A stretch of 64,000 nucleotides of DNA from a virus, in IMG/VR virus record IMGVR_UViG_3300033182_000487, positions 1 to 64,000 of that record. The stretch is one strand, 5' to 3'. The notes beneath the pieces are model-generated. The model was not told the origin of the DNA, did no database searches, and saw only the letters and a list, made by a program, of their open reading frames with translations. Position 1 is the first letter of the stretch, and the number at the start of each line of letters is the position of its first letter. The position numbers were made by a program, and so were the translations under genes. Of the stretch, positions 4,117-56,369 are shown one piece after another.

Positions 4117-4515
4117 ATGACCCACCAACCAACCGACCGAGAGACCAGCGTACTGGTCACCGTGATGCTGATGGCCCTCGCGATGGCAGCAGTTGAGTCC
4201 TTCTCGACCCCCGCACGGGCAGGCGATCCGCCGACGCAAGAGGAAGCGATTGAGAACCTGGAGCAGTTGCTCGTGGAGTACGACGAGGGAACGCTCAACG
4301 CGCACCACGCGCACCAAGGACCGACGGCAAACGTGGAGGCTGATGCCATCGACCCCGCGAGCCTCGTGTCCCTGCGAGCGGAGATCTCAGCACTGAGAGC
4401 AGAGAATGCGGCGCTGCGAGAGCAGAACCAAGAACTTCGACTGCTGTGTCCCTCGCCTATCGCTGTGCCTGATCCTGTGCCTGCGCCTGCGACGATGGGC
4501 CCCTGGCTGCCCTAA
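4117..4515 (+). CDS. Hypothetical exported/membrane protein with coiled coil
   Basis: Signal-like segment VLVTVMLMALAMAA; coiled coil; Pro-rich tail. Confidence 0.6.
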   Translation: MTHQPTDRETSVLVTVMLMALAMAAVESFSTPARAGDPPTQEEAIENLEQLLVEYDEGTLNAHHAHQGPTANVEADAIDPASLVSLRAEISALRAENAALREQNQELRLLCPSPIAVPDPVPAPATMGPWLP

Positions 4516-5300
4516 AGACTGGAGAGGATCGCCCGCCGGGTCTCGTCGCCCTTCGGCAGCCGTGAAGCAAGGCGGATCAGCGCGGACCGGTCGGCACTGG
4601 CCCTGCGGTAGAGGCTCTTGAAGCCCTCGGAAGCGATCATCGTGACGGTGATCTCGATCCCCCGTCGGCTGACATCGACGTCGAGATCCTTGATCCCTGC
4701 CGGGGATCCGATGCTCTGGTGGCTGAGTTCTGCGTCTTCGGGAACGCGGTCGAGGTCCACGTTCTCGTCGTAGACGGCCTCGATCTTCTCGTCGATCAAC
4801 TGCTGGATCTTGCTGTCAATCAGTTGGTTGAGGCGGGATGCCACGAAGGCTTCCACGATGCGGTCGTGGAACGTCAAGGCATCGTCCATCGGCTCGGCAC
4901 CGTACTCCTTGATGTCGTACCGGAGATCCGAGTCCTGTGCGCTGACATCCGCTTGCACTTGCTCCAGGATGAACTTCATGGGGAGTTTGAACTCCAACAC
5001 CACGAAGATCGCAGTAGGCCGCTCAAACTCTCCGGTGTACTCCCCACCCTCGGCTGACCACTTGCCATAGCCCCGTTCATCGACGTCGATGTAGCCAGTA
5101 GAAGCAGCCTTCGCGATGGCTGCGGGCAGTTGCTTCTTGAGCCCGCTCGTGATGGCGTAGCCGAACCCCGACGTGATGTTCTTCGCAGTCTCCTTCAAGC
5201 CGTAGGTGGCGAAGTGCTCGGCTTCGTTCCGCCCGTCCCCGAGGTCGAGGATGCTCTCCAGGAAGGTGGTCATGACAGGGATAAGGGCGCGTGAGTGCAT
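4512..5300 (-). CDS. Acidic late protein with C-terminal tag A
   Basis: GGAG RBS before ATG 5300; CGGTA-N6-CTAT upstream; ends RRASADRSALIRLASRLPKGDETRRAILSSL. Confidence 0.75.
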   Translation of the reverse strand: MHSRALIPVMTTFLESILDLGDGRNEAEHFATYGLKETAKNITSGFGYAITSGLKKQLPAAIAKAASTGYIDVDERGYGKWSAEGGEYTGEFERPTAIFVVLEFKLPMKFILEQVQADVSAQDSDLRYDIKEYGAEPMDDALTFHDRIVEAFVASRLNQLIDSKIQQLIDEKIEAVYDENVDLDRVPEDAELSHQSIGSPAGIKDLDVDVSRRGIEITVTMIASEGFKSLYRRASADRSALIRLASRLPKGDETRRAILSSL

Positions 5301-5334
5301 GGTGGCTCCAAAGGCTCGTACCTGGACCGGCAGT

Positions 5335-5349
5335 ATAGAGAGCCTACCG
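5335..5349 (-). promoter_or_regulatory. Class L (putative late) promoter motif CGGTA-N6-CTAT
   Basis: CGGTAggctctCTAT; the same motif recurs upstream of many other genes. Confidence 0.65.
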
Positions 5350-5350
5350 T

Positions 5351-5701
5351 TCAAGCCTCTCCACGGGACTGGTTGGCTGCCATGGAGGCGATGACGTCGT
5401 CGAGTTGCTCGGTGATCTTCCCCAACTCGGTGCGGAGGGTCAGGGCCTCCAGCAGGCTGTACGAGGACACTTCCCCGAAGACCTTCCGAGGGAGCACGGC
5501 GAGGATGGCCCCTGTGCTCTCCGCGAGAGCGTCTGCCATCTCGTAGACCTCAGCAACGTCTGCTTCTGACACGCCTTCCTCGGTCCACAGGACAACGAGG
5601 TCGTAGGGCGTAGCACGGACCACGGTGACGGCTTCTCGGAGGCGCTCGACGGTCTCACGGTCAGCGGTGGGGTCTTTCGTAGGGGGAGGCTTCCGGGACA
5701 T
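5351..5701 (-). CDS. Hypothetical protein
   Basis: ORF with phage-like codon usage. Confidence 0.65.
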   Translation of the reverse strand: MSRKPPPTKDPTADRETVERLREAVTVVRATPYDLVVLWTEEGVSEADVAEVYEMADALAESTGAILAVLPRKVFGEVSSYSLLEALTLRTELGKITEQLDDVIASMAANQSRGEA

Positions 5702-5839
5702 GGCAGGGGACTGTACCCCCTATCACCGCCCCACGGTGCGTCGTCGGGGTCGAGGTGTGGTCACGAAGGGGGATGCGCCCCCGGTTGTGGCACCGTTGTC
5801 CGGGCACGGTCACGGGGGACATGGACGTAGATCCGAGTC

Positions 5840-6290
5840 GTGATCCTGCGTGAGAGGCTGGAATCAAGGGATCACGCTAAACCCACATAGAAATCCGAAA
5901 CCGAAATGGGTTCGTAGTGATCCTCGCCGGGCTGGCTCTCGTGATCCTCAAACCTGGCCACAGTGAAATCGGCTGTGATCCTGATCCGTGATCCTCGGAC
6001 CCGAAGGCTCGGACGTTGTCGTAAATGGGGAGAGCGGCTCATGGTCCGAGACGTAGGCGAGAACCCCCACCGACCAACCAGCATGTAGTCACACGGGGTC
6101 ACCGTGATCCCACAACAACCGCGCAGGGAGGAGGCGAGGAGGAGGCGAGGAGGAGGCGGGAGGCACTGAGTGAGAAATCGCTGAACGACGAAAAGGCGGA
6201 CGCTGACCCCCAAACCTGCCGCGCATGGCGGTACTTTGCCAAGGCCGGTGGTTACGAGGGGATCAGCGTCCGCCAGTGAGAGGATCACGC
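5840..6290. repeat. Non-coding island with clustered GGATCAC/GTGATCC heptamers and a GGA-rich tract
   Basis: GTGATCC at about 5840, 5917, 5941, 5975, 5988, 6104; GGATCAC at about 5869, 6282; GAGGAGGAGGC-type repeats 6126-6162. Confidence 0.6.
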
Positions 6291-6397
6291 CCACACACGG
6301 ACTGGCAGGCCCGTGTGTGGGTGAGGCTTCGCCTCGGCGTCCCGGTCTGCCAACCAGTCCTCCGAGGCACGCGCACCGTAGACCCATCCCCGCCATC

Positions 6398-6870
6398 AGC
6401 GGGTGGGGGAGTTGAACCCCCACGATGCGTGCTCTCTGTCGCTCAACCACGGGGTCGGTGACCCACGTTTCATGCCCAGGAGGGGTTGCGCCTCCGCAGC
6501 GGGTTACCACACCCGCCGATCCTGCTCTGCCGCCGGAGCGGCCTGGGCCGTGTATTCAGCAGGCACCTGTCTGGTGCCCGTGGTCGAAAAGGTAGAGACC
6601 CCCTGGACCGACGCTTTGCGGGCCAGGGGGGAAGGGTGAACGAAGGTGATGTGGGACGTGAGAGGTCAAGCGCCACCCGGCCCCCGTCGTGGGGACCGGA
6701 TGACGCGACCCTTCATCACTCCCATGTGATGCGTTGGTAGCCCGTAGGTGGGCCAGCCCCTCACCGGTTGAGGAGGGTGAGCAATCCTCGTCGTCAATCC
6801 CAGCGCGACTTCCGCTGCCCCCGTAGGTGGGTTGGAACCTCGCAGTAACGCCGCTGGTCGCGCCAGTTTC
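6398..6870 (-). ncRNA. Candidate structured RNA with tRNA-like 3' domain
   Basis: Many hairpins, including a 16-bp stem whose mismatches are G-U on the minus strand; T-arm-like GGGGG-TTCAACT-CCCCC then ACCCGCT, which can pair with GGCGGGT at 6517-6511. Confidence 0.4.
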
Positions 6871-6886
6871 ACGTCTTGTGGGGACG

Positions 6887-6908
6887 CCCTCCCCCCGAAG
6901 GGGGAGGG
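6887..6908 (-). terminator. GC-rich hairpin after 6921..7715
   Basis: CCCTCCCC-loop-GGGGAGGG. Confidence 0.45.
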
Positions 6909-6920
6909 AAGGGGTTGAGC

Positions 6921-9711: not shown

Positions 9712-10911
9712 CTACAAGTCCTCGTCGGCGAACACGCCACCAGTGACGTGCGCGTCGATGAGGGACTTGGCGATCAGCCGGTTGTCCGGGTCGAGCCGGT
9801 CCAGCCACGCGCGGAAGCCCTTCTTGAGCAGACCCTTCGGCGGGGTGCCGTTGGCCAGCCACAGGAGGTCATCGCACTCGGCGAGGATCTCGCAGAGACC
9901 CCGGTGGGTGAGATCAGCCTCCAGGTCCATGTCGGCCTCGCCCTTGATGGCGAGCCGGATCGCGCCGCAGGCCGCGCCCAACTCGTCGAACAGGGCCGGA
10001 GCCTTGCTGGCGAGGTCAGCGAACTTGCCACGCAGGATCGCGCCCTCGTCCTTCCAGTCGAGGTACTCGGCCTCCACGAAGCGGCCCATGCGGTCAAGCA
10101 GGGACGCATCCATGGCACGGCTGGACATGCGACCGTCCACGTCGCCCGTCCCGCACGAGTTCGCCGTGAAGGCGAAGCGGGTGCCGGGGAACAGGGTGTG
10201 GACCCGACCCGTGGGGCCGACGAGCCGCTTGGAGGTGGTGTCCAGCATGAGCCGGAACTCCTCCAACTGCTCGGGGGTGCCCCGGTCAACGTCACTGAAA
10301 CAGATCAGCGCCGGGTAACGCTTCCCGTCGGTGCCCTCGATGCCGTGAACCAGCGCATCCCAGAGGATGCCGTAGGACCACGAGGTGCCCTGGGAGTCGA
10401 TCTCGCGGCTGTAAAACCACCGCTTGACGTCGGTCCCGCTGGTGAAGGTGTAGATCAGGCTCGGGGTGCGCGTGTCGGCGCAGTAGGCCGAGATCGCCGC
10501 GTCCTTGCCCGTGCCGCTCGGACCCCAGTAAAAGACGGGGTGCCCACGGCGCAGCGCCAGGACGACGCGACGAGCGCGCTCCAGCGCCTTGCCCGTGGAC
10601 GGCCACTGGTAGCCGTCGGGCTTGGGCAGGCACTGACCCTCCGCGATGTTGACGTTGACGGGCGCGGCAACGCCCATCATGTCATGGGAGAGGGTGGCCA
10701 GCGCAGGAGCGGGCTGGCGACGACGGCCCTTGCGCTTGTCCATGACGCCCTGGATCAGGGCGTGGGACACGGTCGCAGCACCGGGGTGCTGGGCGAGGTA
10801 GTCGGCCACCGAGAGGCCGTGGGCCTCGCGCAGGTGGTCGAGGAGGGAGTGGCTCTTGTGGCCACAGATCGCGCAGACGGCGCGGTCATCAACAAGGTGA
10901 AGTGCAGGCAT
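9712..10911 (-). CDS. CobS/MoxR-like AAA+ ATPase with N-terminal C2H2-type Zn finger
   Basis: CAIC...H...H; Walker A GPSGTGKD; Walker B variant CFSDVDR; TANS; MDASLLDRM. Confidence 0.85.
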   Translation of the reverse strand: MPALHLVDDRAVCAICGHKSHSLLDHLREAHGLSVADYLAQHPGAATVSHALIQGVMDKRKGRRRQPAPALATLSHDMMGVAAPVNVNIAEGQCLPKPDGYQWPSTGKALERARRVVLALRRGHPVFYWGPSGTGKDAAISAYCADTRTPSLIYTFTSGTDVKRWFYSREIDSQGTSWSYGILWDALVHGIEGTDGKRYPALICFSDVDRGTPEQLEEFRLMLDTTSKRLVGPTGRVHTLFPGTRFAFTANSCGTGDVDGRMSSRAMDASLLDRMGRFVEAEYLDWKDEGAILRGKFADLASKAPALFDELGAACGAIRLAIKGEADMDLEADLTHRGLCEILAECDDLLWLANGTPPKGLLKKGFRAWLDRLDPDNRLIAKSLIDAHVTGGVFADEDL

Positions 10912-10982
10912 GGTGTCTCCGTTGGCCCCTTGCTGGGGCACTGTGAGTGGAAGGGAATGAGAGAGGGTCAGGAGCGACCCTC

Positions 10983-11016
10983 GTAGTAGGTACGGAAGCC
11001 CGGTCAGGCTCCAACC
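10983..11016 (-). promoter_or_regulatory. Class E promoter motif, copy 4
   Basis: GGTTGGAGC-ctgaccgggct-TCCGTACCTACTAC. Confidence 0.7.
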
Positions 11017-11033
11017 AGACCGGGCGAACTTTT

Positions 11034-11417
11034 TCAGTCGAACATGGCGAGCATCGCCTTGAGCAGGCGGTACTCGTCGCGACGGGCAGCGATGTACCGC
11101 TCGCCGACGGCGATGATGTGCTTGCACACCATGCCGCGATCCTGGTGGTCGCGGCAGGTGCAGGACATGCGGCGGACACGGCCACGGACGGGGCCTTCGA
11201 TGACCACGTTGTAGACGGTGTCGCTGGTCGCGCTCTCCACGGTCGCCGTGATGGCTCCCGTGCTCTTGCTCTCGACCGCCTTGACGACGGCGACGGTCGC
11301 CGCGCGCTGGGCACGGCGGGACTCGGCACCGTCCAACAGGATGCGGACGGCCTTGCCGCGCTCGATCAGCGTGGCCTGCCGAGACTCGATCTCGGCGATG
11401 GTGATTGCCTTGGACAT
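11034..11417 (-). CDS. SWIM zinc-finger protein
   Basis: YNVVI...SCTCRD...VCKHIIAV. Confidence 0.8.
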   Translation of the reverse strand: MSKAITIAEIESRQATLIERGKAVRILLDGAESRRAQRAATVAVVKAVESKSTGAITATVESATSDTVYNVVIEGPVRGRVRRMSCTCRDHQDRGMVCKHIIAVGERYIAARRDEYRLLKAMLAMFD

Positions 11418-11447
11418 AGGATGCCTCCGGGGTTTGATGTTGGGTTC

Positions 11448-11481
11448 ATAGGGGGTACGGAAGCCCGCCGACGCTCCAACC
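11448..11481 (-). promoter_or_regulatory. Class E promoter motif, copy 5
   Basis: GGTTGGAGC-gtcggcgggct-TCCGTACC. Confidence 0.65.
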
Positions 11482-11548
11482 AGCCGGGCCAGATTATTTC
11501 GGCCCATGGGGTGTCTTACTCGATGATCCCACGTCGCCGACCCCCTGC

Positions 11549-11583
11549 CCGCCATCCCCTCTACTGCGTAGAGGGGATGGCGG
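11549..11583. repeat. Perfect 16-bp inverted repeat with 3-nt loop at the divergence point
   Basis: CCGCCATCCCCTCTAC-TGC-GTAGAGGGGATGGCGG. Confidence 0.8.
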
Positions 11584-11726
11584 ATTTCTCGAAATCCTTG
11601 TTGCGGGGCTGGGGTCACTGGGATCACGGCGCTGGGGTCGCTGTTGCACCAGGTGAGAGATCGCTCCCCCACGATCCCGCGCCAACGCCCGCTTTCGCGC
11701 TTTTTCGGGCTTTTTTGGGGCTGGGT

Positions 11727-11760
11727 GGTTGGAGCGTGGTTGGGTTCCCGTATCTCCAAT
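11727..11760 (+). promoter_or_regulatory. Class E promoter motif, copy 6
   Basis: GGTTGGAGC-gtggttgggtt-CCCGTATC. Confidence 0.65.
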
Positions 11761-11833
11761 GTGGGGGCACACCTGCCCCCCCTCCCTTCCCTTCACACTC
11801 AACGTGCCGCGACGAGCGGCCACTGGAGACACC

Positions 11834-12937
11834 ATGAGCAAGCAAACCGCCCCACAGGGCACCCTGACCTTGGATGGTCGCAAGTGGATCGGAGCCGCGC
11901 AGGCTTCGGTCAACTCGATCCTCGGCAACGACGCCCCGAAGGTCTCGTCGCGAGGCCAGCAGTTTTTCAATATCAATAGGTGGACTGCTCGGACCCTGTT
12001 CGCGAAGTTGGCCGAGTCGATCAAGTACGGCAACGTGATGGACGAGTGGACCGTCCGCAACGCCATCGCCCTCGCCAACGGCACCAGTGTGCCGAACCGG
12101 GAGATCGTCATCGCGGCGGTCCCTGACCGCATCCCAACGTGGCTGGCCCGGTCCAGCGTCGGGGGCCGCTACCACGAGGCGTGGCACGACCTGTACTCGT
12201 GTACCCGTGACCTCGACTTCGACGAGGTCTTCGGTCCGCTGATGCAGCGGTGGCCGATGCTCGCTGACTGGAGCCCGTTCGTCGGTGCCGTGCTCACCTG
12301 GGGCAACGTCATCGAAGACATCCGCATCGAGCGGCATGGCTGCAAGGAGCATCCCGGCTCCCAGGACAAGATGCAAGACTTGCAGGACTTGATCCTCAAG
12401 TTGGAGGCCGACGGTCGCACGGCTGCGGAGCACAAGGGCCTGCCCACGAACGACGACATGGCTGTGGTCATGGGCGCGTTCCGTGATCTCGGACTCGGCT
12501 ACGAGACCGAGGCCCAGCAGGCTGCGCTCGCTGGCTACCAGCAGCGGTCGCCCGCTGGCTGGCGTCTGGTCACCCAGGGTGCCCTTAAGCCCCTCCTGGA
12601 CCGTGCCATCACCATGGGTCGGGACGATGATCTCGGTCACTGGTGGCTCGCCATGGAGGTCGTGGCTGTGCTCGCGACCCTCGGCCAGCAGCCGCAGGGA
12701 CGTCCCCAGCCTCCGCAGGACGGCGGCGGCGAGGGCCAGCCCGGTCAGCCCCAGCCCGACGGTGAGGGCGGTGAGGGCGGCGACAGTAAGCCTCCCCGGT
12801 TCCCCCTGTTCAAGGTGGGCGACCGTGCGAAGGCGAAGCGCGGCCCCCATCGCGGCAAGATCGTGGAGGTCACGTTCGCTGGTCCTCCCGACGAGGACGG
12901 GCGGCAGACCCTCAAGTTCGCCCCGGTCCTCGACTGA
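11834..12937 (+). CDS. CobT-like N-terminal (metallopeptidase-like) protein with C-terminal KOW-like motif
   Basis: YHEAWH (HExxH), GNVIEDIRIE, acidic Gly-rich linker, FKVGDRAKAKRGPHRGK. Confidence 0.7.
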   Translation: MSKQTAPQGTLTLDGRKWIGAAQASVNSILGNDAPKVSSRGQQFFNINRWTARTLFAKLAESIKYGNVMDEWTVRNAIALANGTSVPNREIVIAAVPDRIPTWLARSSVGGRYHEAWHDLYSCTRDLDFDEVFGPLMQRWPMLADWSPFVGAVLTWGNVIEDIRIERHGCKEHPGSQDKMQDLQDLILKLEADGRTAAEHKGLPTNDDMAVVMGAFRDLGLGYETEAQQAALAGYQQRSPAGWRLVTQGALKPLLDRAITMGRDDDLGHWWLAMEVVAVLATLGQQPQGRPQPPQDGGGEGQPGQPQPDGEGGEGGDSKPPRFPLFKVGDRAKAKRGPHRGKIVEVTFAGPPDEDGRQTLKFAPVLD

Positions 12938-12960
12938 TCGCGACTTTTTCGGAGCCGGGT

Positions 12961-12994
12961 GGTTGGAGCGCCACCCGGCTCCCGTATCTACTAC
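12961..12994 (+). promoter_or_regulatory. Class E promoter motif, copy 7
   Basis: GGTTGGAGC-gccacccggct-CCCGTATCTACTAC. Confidence 0.7.
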
Positions 12995-13063
12995 GAGGGG
13001 CACCTTCGCCCCCACTCCCTTCCCATTCACATCCCGTGCCCCACAGGGGGCCAAGGAGACACC

Positions 13064-14647
13064 ATGCTTACTTCAATCCTTGAGCGTCTCGGCGCTGCCA
13101 TCTTCGGCAGCAACGAAGACCTCTCCCCCATGCCCCAGCCCAGCGACGACCAGTCCGGCGGCAAGGGCGACAGCAACGACGACACCGACACCGAGCAGGA
13201 CGACGAGTCCGGCGAGGGTGGCGAGTCGGGCGAGTCCGGCGACGACGAGCAGGACGGCGACAGCGCCGACGGTGAGTCCGGCCAGGACGGCGACGACGGC
13301 GACGAGTCCGACGGTTCCGGTGACGGTTCCGAGGACGGCGACGACGGCGAAGGCTCCGACGACGACGGCAGCGACGGTGGCGACACCGACGGTGACCAGC
13401 CCGGAGACTCCGACGGCGGCGAGTCCGGCGGCGGCGATTCCGACGGCGAGTCGGGCGAGTCCGACGCCGACGGTGGCGAGCAGACCGACGACGTGGACCC
13501 GAACAGCGACAAGACCGCTGGCGGCCACGACGACCAGGGCGAGTTCGCCGAGGCCCTGATCGACGGGCTCAAGGCTCCCCAGGATCACATCCTGGACGCT
13601 GCGGACGCTCTCCAGCAGGCCACCGACTCCTGCCGCACGGAGGACGACGTCCAGCCCGGTGAGCAGGTCTGGCGTCCCTACGACCCAGAGGACGACCTGA
13701 TCGCGAAGCCGAAGGGCGACAAGGTCCAGTCCGCGATCCTCCACAAGGAGGCGAAGGTCATCACCGCTGCCCTGCGGACGCAGTTTCGGCGGCGCTTCCT
13801 CGCTGCCCGGAACCCCCGTGAGCAGCACGGCGTCCGGCGCGGCAAGGATCTGTCCGAGCGGCGTCTCGTCGAGTCCTTCGTCGAGATCAAGTCCGGTGTG
13901 CGGCCCAGCCGTCCCGACTACAAGATCACCGCCCAGCAGGACGTGAGCCTGTGCCTCGGTGTGGTCATCGACCAGTCCGGGTCTATGCACGGTCGCGAGC
14001 AGCACGCTGCTGCGGTGTCCGCGCTCGCCATGGCTGAGGCGTTCGATAGCCTCAACGCTCCGGTGATGGTCTGTGGTCCCCGGAACGGTGGCCGTGGTGT
14101 CCGTGGTGGTCGTCAAGGCTACTTGACGGACTACTACCACGAGGACAGCCACACGGGTCAGACGGGCTACGGCGTGGGCACCGGCTCGCTGCAATACCAC
14201 CGTCACGAGCGCATCGTGCTGGACGTCTTCAAGGACTGGGACGAGTCCTTCAAGCAGGTCAAGCACCGTTTCAGCAGTGTCCAGGCCACTGGCTCGACGC
14301 CCCTGTCGGACGGCATCCAGTTCGCCCTCCAGGAGTTGTCCAACCGCCCCGAGCGTCACCGGATCATCGTGGTCCTGACCGACGGCGAGCCGGACCACCG
14401 TGCTGTGGTGAAGCGCCAGATCCGGCTGGCCCGCGAGGCCGGGATCACCGTGATCGGTGTCGGCATCAGCGGTGCCGAGTACGCGGTGCCCGCCCTGTTC
14501 GTTGACCACCACATCGTGGTCAACGATCTCCAGGAGTTGCCGAAGCGCATGATCGAGGTCGTGGGTGCCATCGTGTTCCCCCGCACTGCGAAGCGCGCGG
14601 CCCTGGACGGTCGTGTGGGCTCCAAGCGAGCCCGCCGCCGGGCGTAG
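13064..14647 (+). CDS. CobT-like VWA-domain protein with long D/E/G/S acidic tract
   Basis: MIDAS VIDQSGSM, GSTPL, VLTDGEP, GVGI. Confidence 0.85.
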   Translation: MLTSILERLGAAIFGSNEDLSPMPQPSDDQSGGKGDSNDDTDTEQDDESGEGGESGESGDDEQDGDSADGESGQDGDDGDESDGSGDGSEDGDDGEGSDDDGSDGGDTDGDQPGDSDGGESGGGDSDGESGESDADGGEQTDDVDPNSDKTAGGHDDQGEFAEALIDGLKAPQDHILDAADALQQATDSCRTEDDVQPGEQVWRPYDPEDDLIAKPKGDKVQSAILHKEAKVITAALRTQFRRRFLAARNPREQHGVRRGKDLSERRLVESFVEIKSGVRPSRPDYKITAQQDVSLCLGVVIDQSGSMHGREQHAAAVSALAMAEAFDSLNAPVMVCGPRNGGRGVRGGRQGYLTDYYHEDSHTGQTGYGVGTGSLQYHRHERIVLDVFKDWDESFKQVKHRFSSVQATGSTPLSDGIQFALQELSNRPERHRIIVVLTDGEPDHRAVVKRQIRLAREAGITVIGVGISGAEYAVPALFVDHHIVVNDLQELPKRMIEVVGAIVFPRTAKRAALDGRVGSKRARRRA

Positions 14648-19011: not shown

Positions 19012-19026
19012 CGGTAAAGTGCCTAT
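19012..19026 (+). promoter_or_regulatory. Class L promoter motif
   Basis: CGGTAaagtgcCTAT. Confidence 0.65.
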
Positions 19027-19062: not shown

Positions 19063-19569
19063 ATGCCCCGCACCCTGACTGCCGCCGACCGATCTGCACT
19101 CATTCGCCTCGCGGCGACCATGGACAAGGGCTCTCCTGAGAGGAAGGCCATCCTCGCCGGACTGGAGAAGTCCGCGTCCCTTCTCATGAAGGAGTGGGAG
19201 GCCGGGCAGGAGCCGCTGTTCAAGGCGGGATCAAGCAAGGAGGAGAAGTACGTCCAGTTGTTCCGTGATCTCGCCGACAAGCGCCGCAAGACCATCCAGG
19301 TTGACCTCAAGGGCGTCATGGGCGGCAGCACCAACGGCCTCCGCGAGTTCAAGCGGGGTCGCATGGGCCGCCCGAAGCGTTGGCGTGGCGGACGGAAGGG
19401 CCCCTTTGAGCGGGTCAGCCTCTCCATCGTCCCCCTCGACGACCAGGGCAACCCCATCAAGATGCGGTCCGGCTACAAGTTGTGGCTTTCCGAGTACGAC
19501 GACGGCACGGCAGACGTGAGCGCGTCCATCGGTGACATGGCCATCATGATCAACGATATGAAGGCGTGA
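19063..19569 (+). CDS. Late protein with N-terminal tag A
   Basis: MPRTLTAADRSALIRLAATMDKGSPERKAILAGLEKSAS. Confidence 0.75.
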   Translation: MPRTLTAADRSALIRLAATMDKGSPERKAILAGLEKSASLLMKEWEAGQEPLFKAGSSKEEKYVQLFRDLADKRRKTIQVDLKGVMGGSTNGLREFKRGRMGRPKRWRGGRKGPFERVSLSIVPLDDQGNPIKMRSGYKLWLSEYDDGTADVSASIGDMAIMINDMKA

Positions 19570-19587: not shown

Positions 19588-19761
19588 ATGCCCCGTACCC
19601 TTACTGCCGCTGACCGCTCCGCACTCATTCGCCTTGCCTCGACGCTTCCTGCCGGAAGCGAGGAGCGTCAGTCCATCTTGGCTGGACTGTCGAATGCCCA
19701 TGTAAAGTCCGAAAAAACCTACACGAACGAGCGTGGGCTCAAGACTCCACGCCCGACGTAG
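19588..19761 (+). CDS. 57-aa micro-protein consisting mostly of tag A (not in ORF track)
   Basis: MPRTLTAADRSALIRLASTLPAGSEERQSILAGL...; first 17 codons identical in amino acids to 19063, with only synonymous changes. Confidence 0.6.
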   Translation: MPRTLTAADRSALIRLASTLPAGSEERQSILAGLSNAHVKSEKTYTNERGLKTPRPT

Positions 19762-27649: not shown

Positions 27650-28047
27650 TGTCCCTCCAGATAGATAAGCGCGGCGCGAAGCACCGAGGGGTCTTCCCCC
27701 AGCAGGCCGAGAGCGGTGTTGCACTTCCGGCAGAGGAGACCGCGAATCTCCCCTGTGGTGTGGCAGTGGTCTACGTCCAGCCTTCCATTGAGGCTGTCTT
27801 CGGACGGTCGGCGGCAGATGGCGCACGCCCCCGCCTGTGAAGCGAGGCGTTGGTGGTAGTCCTTCTTGGTCACCCCGTACCGCTCGCGGAGATGCCCCCA
27901 ACGACGGTCGCGCTTGTAGTATTCGCGCTTGTAGTCCTTACAGAAGGCTTCACGACCACCCCCTGCTTTCAGTGAGCGTCGGTAGTAGGCGGTTTCGGAG
28001 TCCTTCGATTCCCCACACTTCGTGCAGGTCTTCGTCAACCCTGGCAT
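27646..28047 (-). CDS. Endonuclease VII-type (HNH) homing endonuclease
   Basis: CAIC...LDVDHCHTTGEIRGLLCRKCNTALG; inserted between nrdA and nrdB. Confidence 0.88.
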   Translation of the reverse strand: MPGLTKTCTKCGESKDSETAYYRRSLKAGGGREAFCKDYKREYYKRDRRWGHLRERYGVTKKDYHQRLASQAGACAICRRPSEDSLNGRLDVDHCHTTGEIRGLLCRKCNTALGLLGEDPSVLRAALIYLEGQ

Positions 28048-31034
28048 GACAGACACTCCTCCTCTGCGACGTAGTCCTTGAGCGCGACCCGTTCGATCTT
28101 CGCCGACACCTTGTCAGGGTCTACCCCGGCGGTGGTGCGGAGGTAGTAGAGGCCCTTGAGGCCCTCCTTCCATGCCTTGATGTGGGTCATCAGGACGTAG
28201 TGGCGGTCACTTCCGGCGGGGAAGAACAGGTTCACCGACTGACCCTGGCAGATGAACGGCTGGCGGTCGGCAGCGTGGCCGACGACCCACCGTTGGTCGA
28301 GTTCAAAGGCGGTCTTGTAGACGTCCTTCTCCCACTCGTCGAGACAGTCGAGGTGCTGGACTGACCCTGCGTTCGTCGTGATGCTGGACCAGACGCGCTC
28401 GCGCTCCGTGGGGTCGGTGATCTTCTTCGCCAGGAGACGCTCCAACTCGGGGTTCCGCACCTGGTGTGATCCCGCACGGGTCCGGTGCGTGTAGGCGTTG
28501 GACTTCCAGGGCTCGATGGACGGGCTGATGTTCAACAGGATGCTGCTGTTGGCGTTGGGGGCCACGGCGAGCAGGTGCGAGTTGCGGCGTCCGGTCCCCT
28601 CGCCGTCCAGGTACTCACCCTTCTCGGCGGCCAGGGCCTCCGTCGCAGCCACAGCCTCGGACTGGATGTGCTGGAAGATCTGGAGGTTCACGCCCTTTGC
28701 CAGGGCCGACTCCCAGGGGAGCCTCCTCTGCTGGAGGTAGGCGTGGAAGCCCATCGCTCCCAGACCGAGGCTGCGCTCACGGGTGGCCGAGTAGACGGCC
28801 CGGTGCAGTTCGTCGGGGGCGTGGTCGATGAACACCTGGAGCACGTTGTCGAGCAGCCGGATCAGATCACGCACCATCGGGGTGTCGCGCCACTCGTCGA
28901 ACTTCGCCAGGTTGACGCTGCTGAGACAGCAGACCGCCGTGCGGTCCTCGGACGTGGGGAGGTGGATCTCGTTGCAGTTGTGGGTGACCATCCCGTTGCA
29001 CACGAAGTGATGGTCTTCCGAATCAACATTCACGCAGAACACATCGTCCGTCCCCACGGCTTCGACGGACACGACTTCGGAGACCTTGCGTGAGTTGTTC
29101 CGGTACTTCCGCTTCGGGATCTTGACCCCCTTCCTCGTGAGGAATCCGGTGGCTTCCTCAAAGGCCAACGCATCGGTCTTGTTGCCGATGACGATGCGCC
29201 ATGCGTCCTTCACCTCGTAAGGGGCATGTGACCCCTTCCCGTCAGGAAGCATGACGGTGCCTGACTTACGGTGAAGATAGAGGCTGGCGCTCATGCCGAG
29301 ATTGCGGAGAATCAGAAGGATGTCGGAGAGGAAGTCTTTGTCGATGTTGGTCAGCGACAGGTAGACGGGAGCACCCTTCCCCCCTCCCACATTCACGGTG
29401 CCATCCGCGTAGAACAAGCCTCGGATGTACTGCCATTGAGTCGCTTCATCGGATGACCAGATCCAGTCTGGCACTGAACCCTTCACGAATCCCAACCCCG
29501 ACTTGTGGAATGTGCGGCTGGAAAGGCGGACCTTCCGCACATCAGAGCAACCCGTGTTCTGGTCGCGGAACCTCGCTGGGTCGCGAGGCCGTGACCCAAC
29601 AACATCCCCGGTTCCGTTCCGAACCTCGTAGGTGTCGCACCCGTACTTGTGGTGTACGCGGTCGAACCGTTCCTGAACTTCGGGAATGAGGTCGAAATCA
29701 GGCTCCCACAGGTCGATCATGTGCATGAGGGATGCTTCATGCTGGGTTCCGTCGGCTTGGTACAAGCCGAGCAAGAACGCCTCGTCTTCCATCGAAACCT
29801 GACCGAACAACCCCTTGTTCGTCTGGACATGAACGCGGTCACCGATGACGAGATCATCACACCGGACATCCCCCCTGTCTGTCTTGACCTTGTGGTACTC
29901 CGTGACCGTGTGGGTCATGCCGTTCTTCAGCGTGATCCGAAAGACCGGAGCATCCTGCTCGACCAAGAGCATGGCCGAAGACTTCTGGGGCAGGTTGTTG
30001 TCGAACACGGTCAGATCATCACCTTGTTCGTACAGTTCCCTTGCTGTCAGCAGTCCCCGGTCGGTGACCACCCGCTGATGTCCCGCAACGCAGAGGTTCG
30101 ATCCGTTGATGCGAAGCCCCAAACGCTTCAACGTCTCGGGGAGTGCCCGGTTCGCGGCGTCGATGAAGTTGAGGTAGGGTTCGCCCGTGCGGCTGCGGAC
30201 CTCGATGATCCGCTGGAACAGGTCACGGGCAGGCATCGTGTCGCGGATGCTCCCGTCGGCGGGGTCCACGAGGTTCCATTCCTTGCCCTCGATGCACGCC
30301 TGCATGAAGTCGTCGGTGATGTTCAAGGCGTTGTGGAGATTGAGGCACTTCCGGTTGGGATCACCGCCCGTCGGGAGTCGCATCTGCAAGAACTCCAGGA
30401 TGTCGGGGTGCGAGACGTCGAGGTAGGCCGCGTAGTTGCCCTTCCGCGTCGTGCCTTGTCGGTACGCGGTCATGTCGGCATCGACGGTCTTGAGAAACGG
30501 GATCGGGCCGGGGGACTTGTCCGACACCGAACGCACGGAAGACCAGTGACCTCCGACGCCACCGCCCTTGACCGCACACCACCGGAGTTCCGCCGTGTGG
30601 GAGATCAAGCCCTCCAGGGTGTCCGGGACGTACTGCAAGAAGCAGGAGATGGGCAGCGACTTCCACTTCTCGCCGGGCACGGGAGCGTTGCTCAGGACCG
30701 GGCTGGCGAACATGAACCAGCCCTTGCTGGCGTAGTCGTAGATGCGTTGAGCGAAGCCCGTGTCACCCTCGCAGTAGGCGACGGCGGCACGGGCGAAGGC
30801 TTCCTGTGGGGACTTCTCGTCGGGGCGCATGTAGTACGCCTTGAGGAGGTCCAATGCGAACGGGCTGAGGTCTTCATCTCGGTCCAGAGAGATCTGGATG
30901 CCGTGGCAAGAGGAACGGGGCTGTGATGGGGTCAACGCCTTCTCCTGTCGATCAGTGCTAAGGAGGAGCGATCTCGGAATCTCGTGCCAGGTCGTGTTCA
31001 TTTCGCTGTCAGACAGGGGCACAAGTTCAGCCAT
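28035..31034 (-). CDS. nrdA: Ribonucleotide reductase class Ia alpha subunit with intein
   Basis: FASPVLSN, PISCF, GGGVG, GSNL|CNEI, SLGLG, APNANSS, CQGQS, KGLYYLRT, CLSCQG. Confidence 0.95.
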   Translation of the reverse strand: MAELVPLSDSEMNTTWHEIPRSLLLSTDRQEKALTPSQPRSSCHGIQISLDRDEDLSPFALDLLKAYYMRPDEKSPQEAFARAAVAYCEGDTGFAQRIYDYASKGWFMFASPVLSNAPVPGEKWKSLPISCFLQYVPDTLEGLISHTAELRWCAVKGGGVGGHWSSVRSVSDKSPGPIPFLKTVDADMTAYRQGTTRKGNYAAYLDVSHPDILEFLQMRLPTGGDPNRKCLNLHNALNITDDFMQACIEGKEWNLVDPADGSIRDTMPARDLFQRIIEVRSRTGEPYLNFIDAANRALPETLKRLGLRINGSNLCVAGHQRVVTDRGLLTARELYEQGDDLTVFDNNLPQKSSAMLLVEQDAPVFRITLKNGMTHTVTEYHKVKTDRGDVRCDDLVIGDRVHVQTNKGLFGQVSMEDEAFLLGLYQADGTQHEASLMHMIDLWEPDFDLIPEVQERFDRVHHKYGCDTYEVRNGTGDVVGSRPRDPARFRDQNTGCSDVRKVRLSSRTFHKSGLGFVKGSVPDWIWSSDEATQWQYIRGLFYADGTVNVGGGKGAPVYLSLTNIDKDFLSDILLILRNLGMSASLYLHRKSGTVMLPDGKGSHAPYEVKDAWRIVIGNKTDALAFEEATGFLTRKGVKIPKRKYRNNSRKVSEVVSVEAVGTDDVFCVNVDSEDHHFVCNGMVTHNCNEIHLPTSEDRTAVCCLSSVNLAKFDEWRDTPMVRDLIRLLDNVLQVFIDHAPDELHRAVYSATRERSLGLGAMGFHAYLQQRRLPWESALAKGVNLQIFQHIQSEAVAATEALAAEKGEYLDGEGTGRRNSHLLAVAPNANSSILLNISPSIEPWKSNAYTHRTRAGSHQVRNPELERLLAKKITDPTERERVWSSITTNAGSVQHLDCLDEWEKDVYKTAFELDQRWVVGHAADRQPFICQGQSVNLFFPAGSDRHYVLMTHIKAWKEGLKGLYYLRTTAGVDPDKVSAKIERVALKDYVAEEECLSCQG
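28977..30092 (-). mobile_element. Intein (372 aa) with LAGLIDADG endonuclease, inserted just before the NrdA catalytic Cys
   Basis: CVAGHQRV..., TEYHKV, LGLYQADG, IRGLFYADG, MVTHN|C. Confidence 0.93.
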
Positions 31035-31137
31035 CGTGGGATTCCTCAAAGATTAGTGTTTTTGCTGGCGGCAGGCGGACGAGAGCAGCCATCGAGCCTT
31101 TGATGAAGCCTCTCTGGACCCGCCTCTATAGGGCTGG

Positions 31138-36179: not shown

Positions 36180-36229
36180 CGGTAGGCTCTCTATGCGCCG
36201 CTCAGGGTGAGGCTCGGTACTCTCTCTAT
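36180..36229 (+). promoter_or_regulatory. Two tandem class L promoter motifs
   Basis: CGGTAggctctCTAT (36180) and CGGTActctctCTAT (36215). Confidence 0.7.
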
Positions 36230-36261: not shown

Positions 36262-38898
36262 ATGATCCCCTCAGACATCCAGCCCCTGATCCGCCTGGCC
36301 GCGACCCTCCCCGTAGGATCACTCGACCGCCGCACCATCCTCGCCTCCTTGAAGAAGCAGGCCGCGTTCGCGGACGACCTCGTTGCACGGGTGGACGTGA
36401 TGTCGGGGTCCATGGGCGGCAAGGACGCGGACCGTGGCCCTCTGTTGAAGGCCGTCCAGGCCGGGCTCCCGGAGAGCGTGTTCAACCTGGAGGAGTTCAC
36501 GGCTGAGGCGTTCCCTCGCTACGGGGTGACCTCCCTCGACGAACTCAGGAAGGCCGAAGACCTCACCGACGAGGACCGCGCCGAACTCAAGTCTCTGGAA
36601 GACCGGATCAAGCCTTTCAGCGCCATGGTCGCGAAGGTGGAGAAGTGGAGCGGGACGAAACTGGGGCAAGACCTCGCCGAGGGTCTCAGCCTGGTCTCCG
36701 GCAAGACCGACCACAAGTTGCGCGAGGCCGTCTGGGCCGGGGTCGCGAAGGGGATGCACGGCGACGTCGAGAAGTTGGAGTCTGGACGGCGCGTCGTCAC
36801 TGACACTGGTCGGGGGTCACTGACCACTCCTGGAGCCCTGGGCACCGAGCCGGAAGACCTCGTGCAGGTGATGCTGGCGGGCGGCATCGAACTGCCGGGC
36901 ATGATCTTCGACAAGAACATGTCGGACAAGACCTACTACGAGGGCGTCCGTGTCCGAGGCACGTTCAAGCCCCGGAAGGAACTGTTCAAGCCGGGCACCA
37001 GCGTCTACACGCTGGCTGGCGCGAAGATCAAGCCGACGAAGATCTCGGAACTGAGGTCGGTCCGAGGCTACGCGAAGTCCGTGGCTTCGACCACGGCCAT
37101 CGACTGGAAGCGGTCGGTCCACATCGGCACCGAGTACATCCTGGCCGAGGGTGATGCCAGTGCTCCTGATCCTGAGCACGCCATGAACATGGGCGGCAAG
37201 GTGAGCCTGGAGTCCCTGCTGGGAGCGGACCTCATTGACGGGGTCACGGTCAGCAAGCAGATGACTCTGGCCCGGTACTACATCAAGAAGATCCGCCAGG
37301 TCATGAAGCGCGCCCTTCCCAAGGGTGTGCAGGCTGCGGTCTGGGAGGCTGTCGCCGAGATGATCACGAAGGGGATCAACCCCTGGAAGGGTCAGGGTCG
37401 CGGTGGCGAGTTCGCCGTTGACTACAACGCCATCGAGAAGTTCCTCGACACCCGTGACGGGCAGAAGATCCTCGACGAGAACGAGATCACCGCCGACTCG
37501 ATCAACAAGAACAACGTCCAGAAGAACTGGGTCCGGGTCCGCGAGAAGATGCTCAAGGCCCTCTCGCAGTTGAGCGACGATGATCTCCTGGCTTCCATCC
37601 ACCTGTCCCTCGCGGCAGGCGGGATGGTGGACGACGTGCCCGAGTACATCAAGAAGATCAAGCGCGACAAGGATCTCTACCAGACCTACATCAGCGACAT
37701 GCGGAAGTACGGCTCGACCCGCGTTGCGGAGCAGGTCGTCAAGCGTGCCGCCGAGCGCCGCGCCATGATCCGGCTCGCAGCGACCCTTCCCGTGGGATCA
37801 CCGGAGCGTCGGGCCATCCTCGCTGGCTGCGAGAAGATGAAGTCCCCGGCCATGCAGGAGTCCTGCGAGGCCATGAAGGCTGGCAAGAAGCCCGGCAAGG
37901 GCAAGGCGAAGTCCGACGACAAGAAGAAGGACGACGGCAAGATGCCCGCCGAGTTGCTGGAGAAGTTCAAGGCGAAGAAGGCCGCTTCCGGCCCTCACCC
38001 CAAGGGTCGCAACTGGAAGGACAAGGGTGGTCGCTGGGTGTGGGCAGGCTCCGATGGTGATCCTGCATTCACCGTGGTCGAGAAGTCCGCTCCGTTCGGC
38101 TCCTACTACAAACTCCAGATGCTTCTCCCCGATGGGGGCATGTACGCCGCTGCGAACCAGAAGACCGAGAAGGAAGACCTGTTCAAGCGTGCTGCGGAAC
38201 TCTACAAGGCGTGGGGCAGCGCAGCCGGGTTCAACCTGAGCCGCCAGCCCGAGCGGTGGAGCAAGATGGCTGGCAAGGGCGACGTGCCCGACGCTCTCAA
38301 GAAGCACCAGTTCACCTCCGAGGACAACCCCAACCCAAAGGGCAACGACAAGGACGGCGACGGCAAGTCCAACGAGCCGAAGCCCGCTGGCCTCAAGGGC
38401 AAGAAGGCTGGTCGCGCTTCCGGTCAGATCATGGCCGAGATCACCAGGTTCGCCGATGCGTTCCTCCCCTCCCTCACCAGGAGGGTTCCTGTGGAGTCTC
38501 TGGGTGATCCCAAGACCTTGAAGCAGATCCAGAACTCGTTGGTGTACGCGATGTCCGATCTGGCGAAGGACGTGGTGATGGAGGAGCGTTTCGGACCCAA
38601 GGGTGGTGGGCAGTACAAGCGGCAGTTCGGCAGCGTCCTGTCCAACCCTCCCCCCTTCTCGTCGCAGACCGCTCACTGGTTTGAGGAGAACCGTGACGCG
38701 CCCAAGTACACCGCTGCATGGAAGGCGATGTCCGGTTGGGCTGCACGGGAAGGCATCTCTCTCGATGCTGGTGCCCGCATCCGTGCCGCAAACAGCAAGA
38801 AGGCCGCGCTGATTCGCCTTGCCGCCGCTCTCCCGGTCGGCTCCTCCGAGCGCAAGACCATCCTCCGCATGGCCGCCTTGAAGGAGATCCGTCCGTGA
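36262..38898 (+). CDS. Late polyprotein with three tag A copies and a sigma-factor-like domain
   Basis: Tag A at N-terminus, middle and C-terminus; EPEDLVQ, AKSVASTTAIDWKR, region 4-like helices. Confidence 0.8.
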   Translation: MIPSDIQPLIRLAATLPVGSLDRRTILASLKKQAAFADDLVARVDVMSGSMGGKDADRGPLLKAVQAGLPESVFNLEEFTAEAFPRYGVTSLDELRKAEDLTDEDRAELKSLEDRIKPFSAMVAKVEKWSGTKLGQDLAEGLSLVSGKTDHKLREAVWAGVAKGMHGDVEKLESGRRVVTDTGRGSLTTPGALGTEPEDLVQVMLAGGIELPGMIFDKNMSDKTYYEGVRVRGTFKPRKELFKPGTSVYTLAGAKIKPTKISELRSVRGYAKSVASTTAIDWKRSVHIGTEYILAEGDASAPDPEHAMNMGGKVSLESLLGADLIDGVTVSKQMTLARYYIKKIRQVMKRALPKGVQAAVWEAVAEMITKGINPWKGQGRGGEFAVDYNAIEKFLDTRDGQKILDENEITADSINKNNVQKNWVRVREKMLKALSQLSDDDLLASIHLSLAAGGMVDDVPEYIKKIKRDKDLYQTYISDMRKYGSTRVAEQVVKRAAERRAMIRLAATLPVGSPERRAILAGCEKMKSPAMQESCEAMKAGKKPGKGKAKSDDKKKDDGKMPAELLEKFKAKKAASGPHPKGRNWKDKGGRWVWAGSDGDPAFTVVEKSAPFGSYYKLQMLLPDGGMYAAANQKTEKEDLFKRAAELYKAWGSAAGFNLSRQPERWSKMAGKGDVPDALKKHQFTSEDNPNPKGNDKDGDGKSNEPKPAGLKGKKAGRASGQIMAEITRFADAFLPSLTRRVPVESLGDPKTLKQIQNSLVYAMSDLAKDVVMEERFGPKGGGQYKRQFGSVLSNPPPFSSQTAHWFEENRDAPKYTAAWKAMSGWAAREGISLDAGARIRAANSKKAALIRLAAALPVGSSERKTILRMAALKEIRP

Positions 38899-50486: not shown

Positions 50487-50488
50487 AG

Positions 50489-53215: not shown

Positions 53216-53233
53216 TGCCTCACACACAGGGAG

Positions 53234-54657: not shown

Positions 54658-55283
54658 ATGACCATGACGGACTCTGCCAGTCTCTGGCACGGGTGGAAGC
54701 ACTGAGGGATGCCTCTCTCGGTGCGCTCGCCAGTGCCGAGCAGCAGGTGGCGGCTCTGGAGGCTGAGGAAGAAGTCCTCGCCCGTGTGGCCGACCTGTTC
54801 CGCGTCTTGATTGACCGGGAGGTGGTGGACAACGCAAAGACCGTGGAAAGCCTCCTCACCGAGGGCCTGCAAGCGATCTTCGACGACCTGGACCTGTCGG
54901 TGCGAACCGAGATCGAGGTCCAGCGAGGCAAGGTCGCTGTGGACCTCGTGACGGTCCAGAAGGAACCCGACGGCACGACCACGGAAGGGTCCAGCACCGA
55001 CGCCTACGGCGGATCGGTCGCCACGGTCCAGTCCGTGCTGCTTCGCATCGTCGTCCTCAACCGACGGGGACTGCGCCCGCTCCTCCTGTTGGACGAGTCC
55101 CTCGGCGCGGTGGCCGAGCACTACGTCCCTCGCGTGGGCCAGTTCCTGTCCATCCTGTCCGAGCGGATGGGCCTTGATGTCCTCGCCGTGAGCCACAACC
55201 CGGCTCTGGTCGAGGCCGCGAACACGGCCTACCGCATCCAGAAGAAGGACGGCGAGGCGGCGTTCCGCAAGATCGGGCGGTGA
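54654..55283 (+). CDS. SbcC/Rad50-like ATPase, C-terminal half
   Basis: Coiled coil, signature-like YGGS, Walker B LLLDES, H-loop VSHN. Confidence 0.8.
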   Translation: MNDHDGLCQSLARVEALRDASLGALASAEQQVAALEAEEEVLARVADLFRVLIDREVVDNAKTVESLLTEGLQAIFDDLDLSVRTEIEVQRGKVAVDLVTVQKEPDGTTTEGSSTDAYGGSVATVQSVLLRIVVLNRRGLRPLLLLDESLGAVAEHYVPRVGQFLSILSERMGLDVLAVSHNPALVEAANTAYRIQKKDGEAAFRKIGR

Positions 55284-55287
55284 CCTC

Positions 55288-55704
55288 ATGCGAACCCGAA
55301 GCGAGATCCAGCAGAAACTCAAGCAGGCCAAGTACCGGCATGTGAAGCGGATCTTGCGTGATCGGTTCCCCCGCGATCAGGACTGGCCGAAGCACGAGGT
55401 CGAGCAGATCAAGGACGAGTACCGGACCTTCTTCCAGGAGGCTCCGCTCCACGAGATCGCCCGCGAGTTCCCTGATGTCGCTGCCCTGATGTGGGTGCTG
55501 CAAGACCAGCCCGACCAGGCGCTGGCCGTCAACGGCACGATGGTGGGGGCCATGGGTGGGGTCATGCTGTGGGCAGACTCCCACGACGAGGCCGAGTACG
55601 CCCGTGACCTCATTGAGAAGGTCATGGCTCAGGCGCTCCAGCCGCCGACCGTGCGAGACCCCGACCCGGTGAAGAAATCTTGGTGGCAGAGGATCTTCGG
55701 ATGA
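55288..55704 (+). CDS. Hypothetical protein
   Basis: Operon context; amphipathic tail SWWQRIFG. Confidence 0.7.
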   Translation: MRTRSEIQQKLKQAKYRHVKRILRDRFPRDQDWPKHEVEQIKDEYRTFFQEAPLHEIAREFPDVAALMWVLQDQPDQALAVNGTMVGAMGGVMLWADSHDEAEYARDLIEKVMAQALQPPTVRDPDPVKKSWWQRIFG

Positions 55705-56222
55705 ACCCGCACCTGCTCGCCTCGGTTCAACACCCGTTCCAGAAGCGCCCCCTGATGCTCGATGGGGTTCCCGTACCCCGCGAGGCCGGGCCGTTCCTGA
55801 TCACCGCGACCCGCGAGTTGATGTGGGTGGAGCGAGCCTTCGGCAGCGGCTTCCTGCGACTGGCGGTGCGGAAGCAGACCACCGACCAGTTGTACAGCGA
55901 CCTGGTCGCCGAGATCGCCGAGGAAGGCGTCCGCCGTGACTGGGGGAACGTCCAACCGCCGACCATGGCAGGTGTGCTGGAGGGGATGAACTACCTCCAC
56001 TACTACGACCTCCCTGACCCCACGCTGCTGTACGGGTCTGAGTTCGACATCGGGGCCGCGCCTGACATGAACCGCGCCCCCGCTGACTGGCTTCCTCCCT
56101 CGTGGGCGGTGCTGGTCCCAGACCGAGCGTATGTGGGCACCGTCTACCTGTTTGGTGGCGGCTACCTCGGCGCGGTGGTTCACAACCCATCCCGAGGCGT
56201 GGTCGTCCTCCGAGGGGCATGA
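55701..56222 (+). CDS. Hypothetical protein
   Basis: ATGA-coupled ORF. Confidence 0.7.
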   Translation: MNPHLLASVQHPFQKRPLMLDGVPVPREAGPFLITATRELMWVERAFGSGFLRLAVRKQTTDQLYSDLVAEIAEEGVRRDWGNVQPPTMAGVLEGMNYLHYYDLPDPTLLYGSEFDIGAAPDMNRAPADWLPPSWAVLVPDRAYVGTVYLFGGGYLGAVVHNPSRGVVVLRGA

Positions 56223-56224
56223 CT

Positions 56225-56238
56225 CGGTAGGTTTCTAT
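56225..56238 (+). promoter_or_regulatory. Class L promoter motif (N5 variant)
   Basis: CGGTAggtttCTAT. Confidence 0.55.
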
Positions 56239-56273
56239 GCGTAGGGTGTCGTATGACTCACGCGAGGATCCCC

Positions 56274-56369
56274 ATGACCCCCTCAGACCACAAAGCCCTG
56301 ATCCGGCTGGCGAGCACCCTTCCTGATGGGGACCGCCTTCGCCGTGCGATCCTGCGGAGCGTGAAGTAG
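56274..56369 (+). CDS. 31-aa micro-protein that is tag A alone (not in ORF track)
   Basis: MTPSDHKALIRLASTLPDGDRLRRAILRSVK; GAGG RBS; own class L motif. Confidence 0.7.
   Translation: MTPSDHKALIRLASTLPDGDRLRRAILRSVK

Follow-up and report, generated by a model that had tools for sequence, protein, structure and literature searches.

A portable peptide tag, most likely an address label for head loading, on hypervariable proteins of an uncultured huge-phage group

Introduction

Why would a virus place the same short peptide at the start, at the end and in the middle of proteins that are otherwise unrelated? The question is raised by a stretch of 64,000 nucleotides (nt), here called the window, which comprises bases 1-64000 of the 113,148-bp IMG/VR viral contig IMGVR_UViG_3300033182_000487 (G+C 64%). 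An earlier note, made from the letters of the window, had described seven copies of a motif, tag A, fused to several proteins or standing alone as micro-genes, and had proposed that it loads effectors into the phage head and is then clipped off. We examined this peptide across the whole contig, its relatives and large protein collections. Tag A is most likely a head-loading address label of an uncultured huge-phage group, and has not been described before.

To our knowledge, it is an open question by what means jumbo and huge phages choose the numerous ejection proteins packed into their heads; for the phiKZ and SPN3US group we know only of cleavage motifs and long propeptides.

Results

The tag is conserved as a peptide

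All seven copies were found where the earlier note had placed them (Table 1), and two more lie outside the window, at the N-termini of contig open reading frames (ORFs) 67647-67970 and 78881-79327. A profile built from these nine copies was run on the six-frame translation of the contig. The copies scored 41-71 bits, against about 9 bits for the next best match, and each scored in a single frame and strand only. The module spans 30-34 residues, is predicted to form a helix-loop-helix (alignment A1) and has a mean net charge of +1.8.

Selection acts on the peptide and not on the DNA. The copies in 19063-19569 and 19588-19758, which had been said to differ only synonymously, share 17 identical residues with 7 synonymous codon differences. 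The copy at 19621 and that in 78881-79327 are 90% identical as protein and 68% identical as DNA. Across all pairs of copies, 58% of the codons for the same amino acid differ, and the longest nucleotide run common to any two copies is 14 nt. These codon differences and the short maximum run rule out a repeat conserved at the DNA level, one of the cases that the earlier note had named as fatal to its proposal.

The carriers are indeed otherwise unrelated: they resemble each other in the tag and nowhere outside it. None of them belongs to a Pfam or PHROGs family, no such family lies over the tag in the seven carriers at E values up to 1, and no recognised replication gene on the contig carries it.

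The tag is widespread and sits on changing cargo

Judged by TerL, the contig is closest among sequenced relatives to LR745208.1, an uncultured 485-kb phage (55%), and to the isolate Tunturiibacter phage Tunturi_5 (29%). A syntenic 297-kb relative (G001; G+C 59.5%) has its gene order in common with the contig and proteins 50-93% identical to those of the contig. Related IMG/VR contigs carry 4-24 tag copies each, with 24 in G001. A tblastn search of 50,697 GenBank phage records found no tag, and a literature search found the core motif in no paper. By profile search of 1.84 billion representative proteins, the tag matched 1,513 clusters at E ≤0.001 and 373 at E ≤1e-10; all were metagenomic, and a few (e.g. 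the repetitive P0057) were false positives. No family of Pfam-A or PHROGs v4 covers the tag in 95 tagged representatives. Scanning a genome collection gave at least one confirmed match. It lies on a 17,970-bp contig from the bin of an Actinomycetota metagenome-assembled genome, which is a weak hint at the host.

The tag is not bound to one position. The best 150 matches contained 128 N-terminal, 71 internal and 37 C-terminal copies (n=236), the N-terminal ones typically at residues 5-34, straight after the start codon. Two or three copies were present in 75 of the 149 best-matching proteins. Where a protein had just one tag, at its N-terminus (n=107), pairwise tag identity was 84%, and the cargo, the remainder of the protein, fell into 82 unrelated groups. 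Cargo ranged from 100 to 900 amino acids (aa).

Comparison of G001 with the contig showed the same separation of tag from cargo: tagged proteins were alike only across the tag, and neighbouring genes were 60-80% identical. Tagged genes occupied conserved slots with different cargo, one before the gene of a C39-like peptidase and one after the homologue of 55680-56222. A conserved slot with changing cargo is the pattern expected of fast-evolving accessory or effector loci. In G001, a tagged gene also directly follows the portal gene.

Pfam recognised few cargo types among the 95 representatives, and most cargo matched neither Pfam nor PHROGs. P0045 is an ADP-ribosyltransferase (domain at residues 148-330) with two C-terminal tags; no member of this enzyme family was found in five related contigs. 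P0062 is a pentapeptide-repeat protein, and other tagged proteins have lysine-rich modules. Further matches were to DUF2958, to a family of fusellovirus VP2-like basic proteins and to a mycobacteriophage L5 gp82-like domain.

Two recurrent modules were observed beside the tag. The first, encoded at window 37860-37900, has two cysteines about 12 residues apart and then a lysine-rich stretch; of 200 tagged proteins, 19 have it immediately after the tag (including P0034, P0036, P0059 and P0086). The other, the third recurrent module, is of the type K-Y-L-K-x-H-P-x-A-D and follows the tag in at least five tagged proteins.

Tagged genes have their promoter in common with structural operons

The earlier note had placed a CGGTA-N5/6-CTAT motif in front of every tagged unit, and one or two sites do precede each of the six units. 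Twenty sites were found on the contig against 0.03 expected, all pointing at genes and mostly 13-70 nt ahead of the start codon. The basic site is 15 nt long; in its extended form the consensus reads CGGTAG-N5-CTAT, with a ribosome-binding site after it. Since the promoter-like site of the 262-aa tagged protein overlaps the upstream TTG, the start of ORF 4512-5354 was set to the ATG at 5300.

Such sites also head the operons with TerL (79329), portal (84132) and protease, scaffold and capsid genes (100630). The label of a late or structural promoter therefore appears reasonable. The reading of tagged genes as late genes rests on this promoter and not on their neighbours, which in the window are replication genes. 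In G001, 37 such sites were found; 9 of 16 called tagged genes had one within 150 nt, and the others lay in runs of tagged genes.

A junction motif links the tag to head proteins

The K/R-x-A junctions that had been described between tag and cargo are present. Counted from the end of the tag, K stands at position +2 in 49% of copies and A at position +4 in 40%. K/R-x-A within 6 residues after the tag occurs in 53% of copies, against a background of 6.5% elsewhere in the same proteins.

Occurrence of the longer form, K/R-x-A-[SAG], was compared with composition-preserving shuffles of each protein. Five proteins of the contig were enriched (all P ≤0.0005): the 659-aa late protein of 61039-63018 (17 observed, 3.2 in shuffles), the three-tag protein (13 and 4.4), the late product of 91657-93933, like that of 61039-63018 resembling a polyprotein (11 and 3.9), the scaffold-like protein (10 and 2.0) and the head maturation protease (10 and 2.5). 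TerL, portal, RecD2 and ribonucleotide reductase showed no enrichment in the same test. The scaffold and tagged proteins again headed the enrichment list in G001. A K-L-A-A-S site near the N-terminus of the capsid protein is kept in four phages, down to 52% identity. This circumstantial pattern is what would be expected if the head protease cuts at K/R-x-A.

Two side observations concern the same protease. The 659-aa late protein has its own promoter site and no tag; with its 17 sites it is a candidate polyprotein that the protease may process. The C-terminal tail of the protease itself (50 residues; P0202-P0321) is strongly conserved over 111 homologues and is a good candidate for the protease's own procapsid-targeting signal. 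We rejected the idea that the tag mimics this tail: the 111 tails score at most 2 bits with the tag profile, and hhalign gave P = 0.22. A tail similarity in LR745208.1 scored 12 bits at first and 7.8 bits (E = 1.8) in exhaustive search, which is not significant.

A related phage carries a diverged variant

Exhaustive search of LR745208.1 found no tag A. An all-against-all scan for short shared peptides, which recovers tag A on the contig, revealed an 11-copy variant family (e.g. L078:18174-18575:-), with 10 copies directly after the start codon and 1 internal. The variant has helix 1, with its LIRLA core, and a proline turn in common with tag A (hhalign P = 3e-5), and differs in the second helix. 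K/R-x-A-[AGM] forms the end of 9 of the 11 copies. In the LR745208.1 head operon, a gene that begins with one copy lies between those for scaffold and capsid. The capsid proteins of LR745208.1 and the contig are 86% identical.

Of 10 variant-tagged genes, 8 have a CTAT(C) box 18-28 nt ahead of the start codon, and the full CGGTA...CTAT site occurs just twice in the 485 kb; the late promoter therefore appears to have diverged along with the tag.

Micro-genes and the three-tag protein

The earlier note had counted stand-alone micro-genes among the forms of the tag; they are better read as relics. Residues 1-27 of the 31-aa ORF match the N-terminal tag of the 308-aa protein P0017 with 96% identity, its final four residues are the end of the C-terminal tag of P0017, and the syntenic spot in G001 holds a 412-aa gene with two tags. 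The ORF is therefore best explained as a recombination product in which the cargo was deleted between two tag-coding repeats. Homologues of the 56-aa ORF are 137-157 aa long. Its own tag is intact and no remnant of the missing part was found downstream; it is probably a truncated tagged gene.

The 878-aa protein with three tags is the sole conserved tagged family. Its second half corresponds in other phages to an independent gene with an N-terminal tag, the alignments of P0034, P0036, P0059 and P0086 beginning at residue 496. What is an internal tag in the one is thus the N-terminal tag of the others, from which it follows that internal tags can arise by gene fusion. An AlphaFold2 model from an alignment of 17 homologues (predicted local distance difference test score 58) shows each tag as a helix, a loop at the LPxGS turn and a second helix. 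Confidence is moderate for the fold of the N-terminal 440 residues; the second half is rich in lysine and for the most part disordered. The model had no fold match in PDB or BFVD, and Pfam showed no sigma domain in the protein; a sigma-factor-like domain was rejected. For the cargo of the 262-aa protein, an Atlas look-up returned weak lipid-binding-like leads at 0.85 and nothing more.

Genomic context

CheckV estimates the contig to be 25% complete; the full genome is therefore probably several hundred kb. Gene calls beyond the program-made ones were based on G+C content at third codon positions (GC3). The window encodes mainly replication and nucleotide-metabolism proteins: besides those in Table 1, RecD2, RecA, SbcCD-like proteins, a PD-(D/E)XK nuclease, a clamp loader and both ribonucleotide reductase subunits. 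Structural genes lie beyond it, among them one for a giant sheath-like protein. The order of the head operon is the same in Tunturi_5, where it is annotated accordingly.

Several observations stand apart from the tag. Inteins (LAGLIDADG or Hint domains) interrupt three genes, including that of the head protease, whose homologues elsewhere are about 480 aa long and lack the intein. Topoisomerase IB sequences occur twice, once in the window and once joined to a PAP2 phosphatase domain in a 1,429-aa protein encoded just upstream of the head operon. A Ros/MucR-like zinc-finger region is found in the MoxR-type AAA ATPase, which is conserved with its partner in G001, and a Ros/MucR domain in a second protein.

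Table 1. Tagged genes, promoter-like sites and other features of the contig (window and contig numbering coincide up to 64000)
Feature	Position	Strand	Remarks
262-aa orphan protein	4512-5300	-	C-terminal tag 4515-4604 (motif 4524-4583), preceded by R-R-A-S junction
168-aa orphan protein	19063-19569	+	N-terminal tag 19075-19164 (motif 19096-19155), E-K-S-A-S junction, then cargo; close homologue P0199
56-aa ORF	19588-19758	+	tag 19600-19689 (motif 19621-19680) and 23 residues
878-aa three-tag protein	36262-38898	+	tags 36262-36351, 37741-37830, 38785-38874 (motifs 36283-36342, 37762-37821, 38806-38865); conserved; 13 K/R-x-A-[SAG] sites
31-aa ORF, solo tag	56274-56369	+	motif 56295-56354
Promoter-like site, N6 spacer	5335-5349	-	before 4512-5300
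Promoter-like site	19012-19026	+	heads unit of 19063 and 19588
Promoter-like sites, two in tandem	36180-36194, 36215-36229	+	before 36262-38898
Promoter-like site, N5 spacer	56225-56238	+	before solo-tag ORF
N6/N4 DNA methylase	25-1902	-	intein-bearing
Topoisomerase IB	2371-3846
MoxR-type AAA ATPase and VWA/CobT-like partner	9712-14647		Ros/MucR-like zinc-finger region in the ATPase
Ribonucleotide reductase large subunit	28035-31049	-	intein-bearing
659-aa late protein	61039-63018	+
Protein with Ros/MucR domain	76926-78437
C39-like peptidase	79342-80253 (L008:16342-17253)		Peptidase_C39_2 domain (6e-11), then two K/R-x-A sites and variable C-terminal part; late gene
TerL	82176-84137
Portal	85063-86766
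PAP2 phosphatase domain and topoisomerase IB catalytic core	96317-100606 (L009:14317-18606)		1,429 aa
Head maturation protease	101640-104435	+	intein-interrupted; first gene of head operon
Scaffold-like protein	104432-105907		acidic, 491 aa; second in head operon
195-aa protein			head operon, between scaffold-like and major capsid genes
Major capsid protein	106762-107634		phrog_2522 major head protein, 2e-54

Discussion

A candidate address label for the procapsid

We propose that the tag is a portable procapsid-targeting signal that is clipped by the head protease at the K/R-x-A junction, and give this reading a probability of about 0.5. The tag would act as an address label, docking late accessory proteins on the interior of the assembling procapsid, be it the scaffold core or the shell. 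Proteins so docked would be enclosed in the head, in the manner of the capsid-targeting sequence of phage T4. The head maturation protease would then trim the tag at K/R-x-A, its probable site, and would also degrade the scaffold. Multi-tag proteins, with two or three copies, may be polyproteins or doubly anchored cargo, and the enclosed cargo would finally be delivered into the host.

Whatever computation could examine agrees with a cleavable signal for head targeting. The parts of the earlier proposal that stood are the portability of the tag, the selection on its peptide, its independence of position, the late promoter and the junction; the micro-genes are better read as relics. To these are added the predicted helix-loop-helix shape, the fixed offset of the junction, the co-enrichment of its motif in scaffold and protease, the hypervariable cargo and the diverged variant in a related phage.

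Several findings weigh against the proposed targeting role. The broad tag profile found no copy in the scaffold-like protein, the protease, the capsid protein, the portal or any ORF of the contig's head module. The K/R-x-A motif is short and its reading as a cleavage site circumstantial, and junctions ahead of C-terminal tags show less regularity (25%, with a background of 9%). ORFs that consist of an intact tag and nothing else turn up repeatedly (e.g. P0066), and targeting by itself would not call for them. Phages that differ in helix 2 of the tag have capsid proteins 86-99% identical to each other. Conservation of the capsid while helix 2 diverges speaks against the shell and for the scaffold or some other protein as the receptor; the contact of the diverging part is probably with a less conserved component than the shell, for which the scaffold is an example. 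Lastly, the clade is known from sequence alone.

Alternative readings

The tag might instead dock on a late complex other than the head, such as the tail or baseplate, a cytoplasmic late complex or a host hub, so that tagged proteins are never enclosed in the capsid. What the data establish in this respect is co-expression with structural genes, and some tagged genes adjoin the sheath-like gene and the C39-like peptidase gene rather than head genes. However, the junction motif is common to the scaffold and the head protease, one tagged gene lies within the LR745208.1 head operon and another directly after the G001 portal gene, and the cargo varies as injected effectors do. We consider docking outside the head unlikely.

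Somewhat less probable again is that tags bind each other, by homotypic or heterotypic oligomerisation, and that tagged proteins form an inner body or condensate in the head with the three-tag protein as its hub. Multi-tag proteins are common among the best matches, the scaffold lacks the tag, and the three-tag protein, the one tagged family that is conserved, has a lysine-rich and largely disordered second half. Yet most tagged proteins have a single tag, and LR745208.1 has a variant of the tag but no homologue of the three-tag protein. Moreover, the junction motif common to scaffold and protease suggests that the tag is removed, which would dissolve the network.

In a further reading, which we regard as very improbable, the C39-like cysteine peptidase encoded nearby would process the tag as a leader peptide, in the way of the maturation or export of bacteriocins and of ribosomally synthesised and post-translationally modified peptides. 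The peptidase gene lies directly downstream of a tagged gene on the contig, in G001 and in G005, and a conserved N-terminal leader with a variable remainder is typical of many such precursors. The end of the tag, however, lacks a double-glycine site (GG, GA or GS) and reads x-K-x-A, tags are also C-terminal and internal, and the cargo consists of large folded proteins, including an enzyme, and not of small core peptides. The protein has the Peptidase_C39_2 domain alone, with no transporter domain found, and most tagged genes are far from its gene. The peptidase was accordingly rejected as the processor of the tag: its position beside some tagged genes is the sole link, and LR745208.1 has the peptidase as well.

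A DNA-level repeat, an assembly artefact or a chance motif has nothing in its favour beyond the repetition itself and is already refuted by the differing codons, the 14-nt limit, the single frame and strand of each copy and the 1,513 independent protein clusters.

Implications

The tag provides a well-delimited candidate signal, about 30 residues long, together with a candidate cleavage junction, for the selection of ejection proteins. A broader claim is that interchangeable, co-diverging address peptides (tag A and the LR745208.1 variant) and the K/R-x-A site form a general loading code by which dozens of hypervariable effectors per genome are packed, trimmed and, along with the DNA, injected; to this we give slightly less than even odds. 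If true, the code would be the first sequence-defined cargo-loading signal for the ejection proteins of jumbo phages. The more than 1,500 cargo families that the tag marks in uncultured phages form a list of likely host-takeover or anti-defence effectors. A confirmed tag would also provide a natural, position-independent means of loading proteins into HK97-fold shells.

Comparison with known systems

The closest parallel is the capsid-targeting sequence of T4, a peptide that attaches to the prohead core and is cleaved off by gp21 (PMC7411985). As in T4 (IPI-III, Alt), a short peptide is found on unrelated, fast-evolving accessory proteins expressed with head genes, and the hypervariable tagged cargo resembles the T4 internal-protein loci. 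In both, a motif that follows the peptide recurs in scaffold-type proteins that are substrates of the prohead protease (PMC7411985), and the ADP-ribosyltransferase P0045 recalls T4 Alt. The differences are equally plain. The T4 sequence is the extreme N-terminus of internal head proteins, whereas the tag, three times longer and predicted to be a helix-loop-helix, is N-terminal in 128 of 236 copies, elsewhere C-terminal or internal, and often present two or three times. Its junction is K/R-x-A and not the T4 protease site, a single contig can have as many as 24 copies, and its cargo clusters number more than 1,500.

Terminal peptides also direct proteins into HK97-fold shells in the case of encapsulin cargo-loading peptides and of the C-terminal tail of the HK97 maturation protease. 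An encapsulin-like loading peptide, an idea suggested by the GS turn, was rejected: there is no encapsulin, and the sole HK97-fold protein is a genuine capsid protein, accompanied on the contig by portal, TerL, protease and scaffold.

In predicted shape, the tag resembles the C-terminal coat-binding helix-turn-helix of the P22 scaffold (SP tag), fusion to which suffices for enclosure in an HK97-fold shell (PMC6387247). Both are basic helix-loop-helices of about 30 residues, by the AlphaFold2 shape and the net charge of about +1.8 of the tag. The use of the P22 element on cargo is an engineering trick, whereas here natural cargo is tagged and the phage's own scaffold is not. On these likenesses, the tag is best regarded as analogous to both the T4 capsid-targeting sequence and the P22 scaffold tag, and as a member of neither family.

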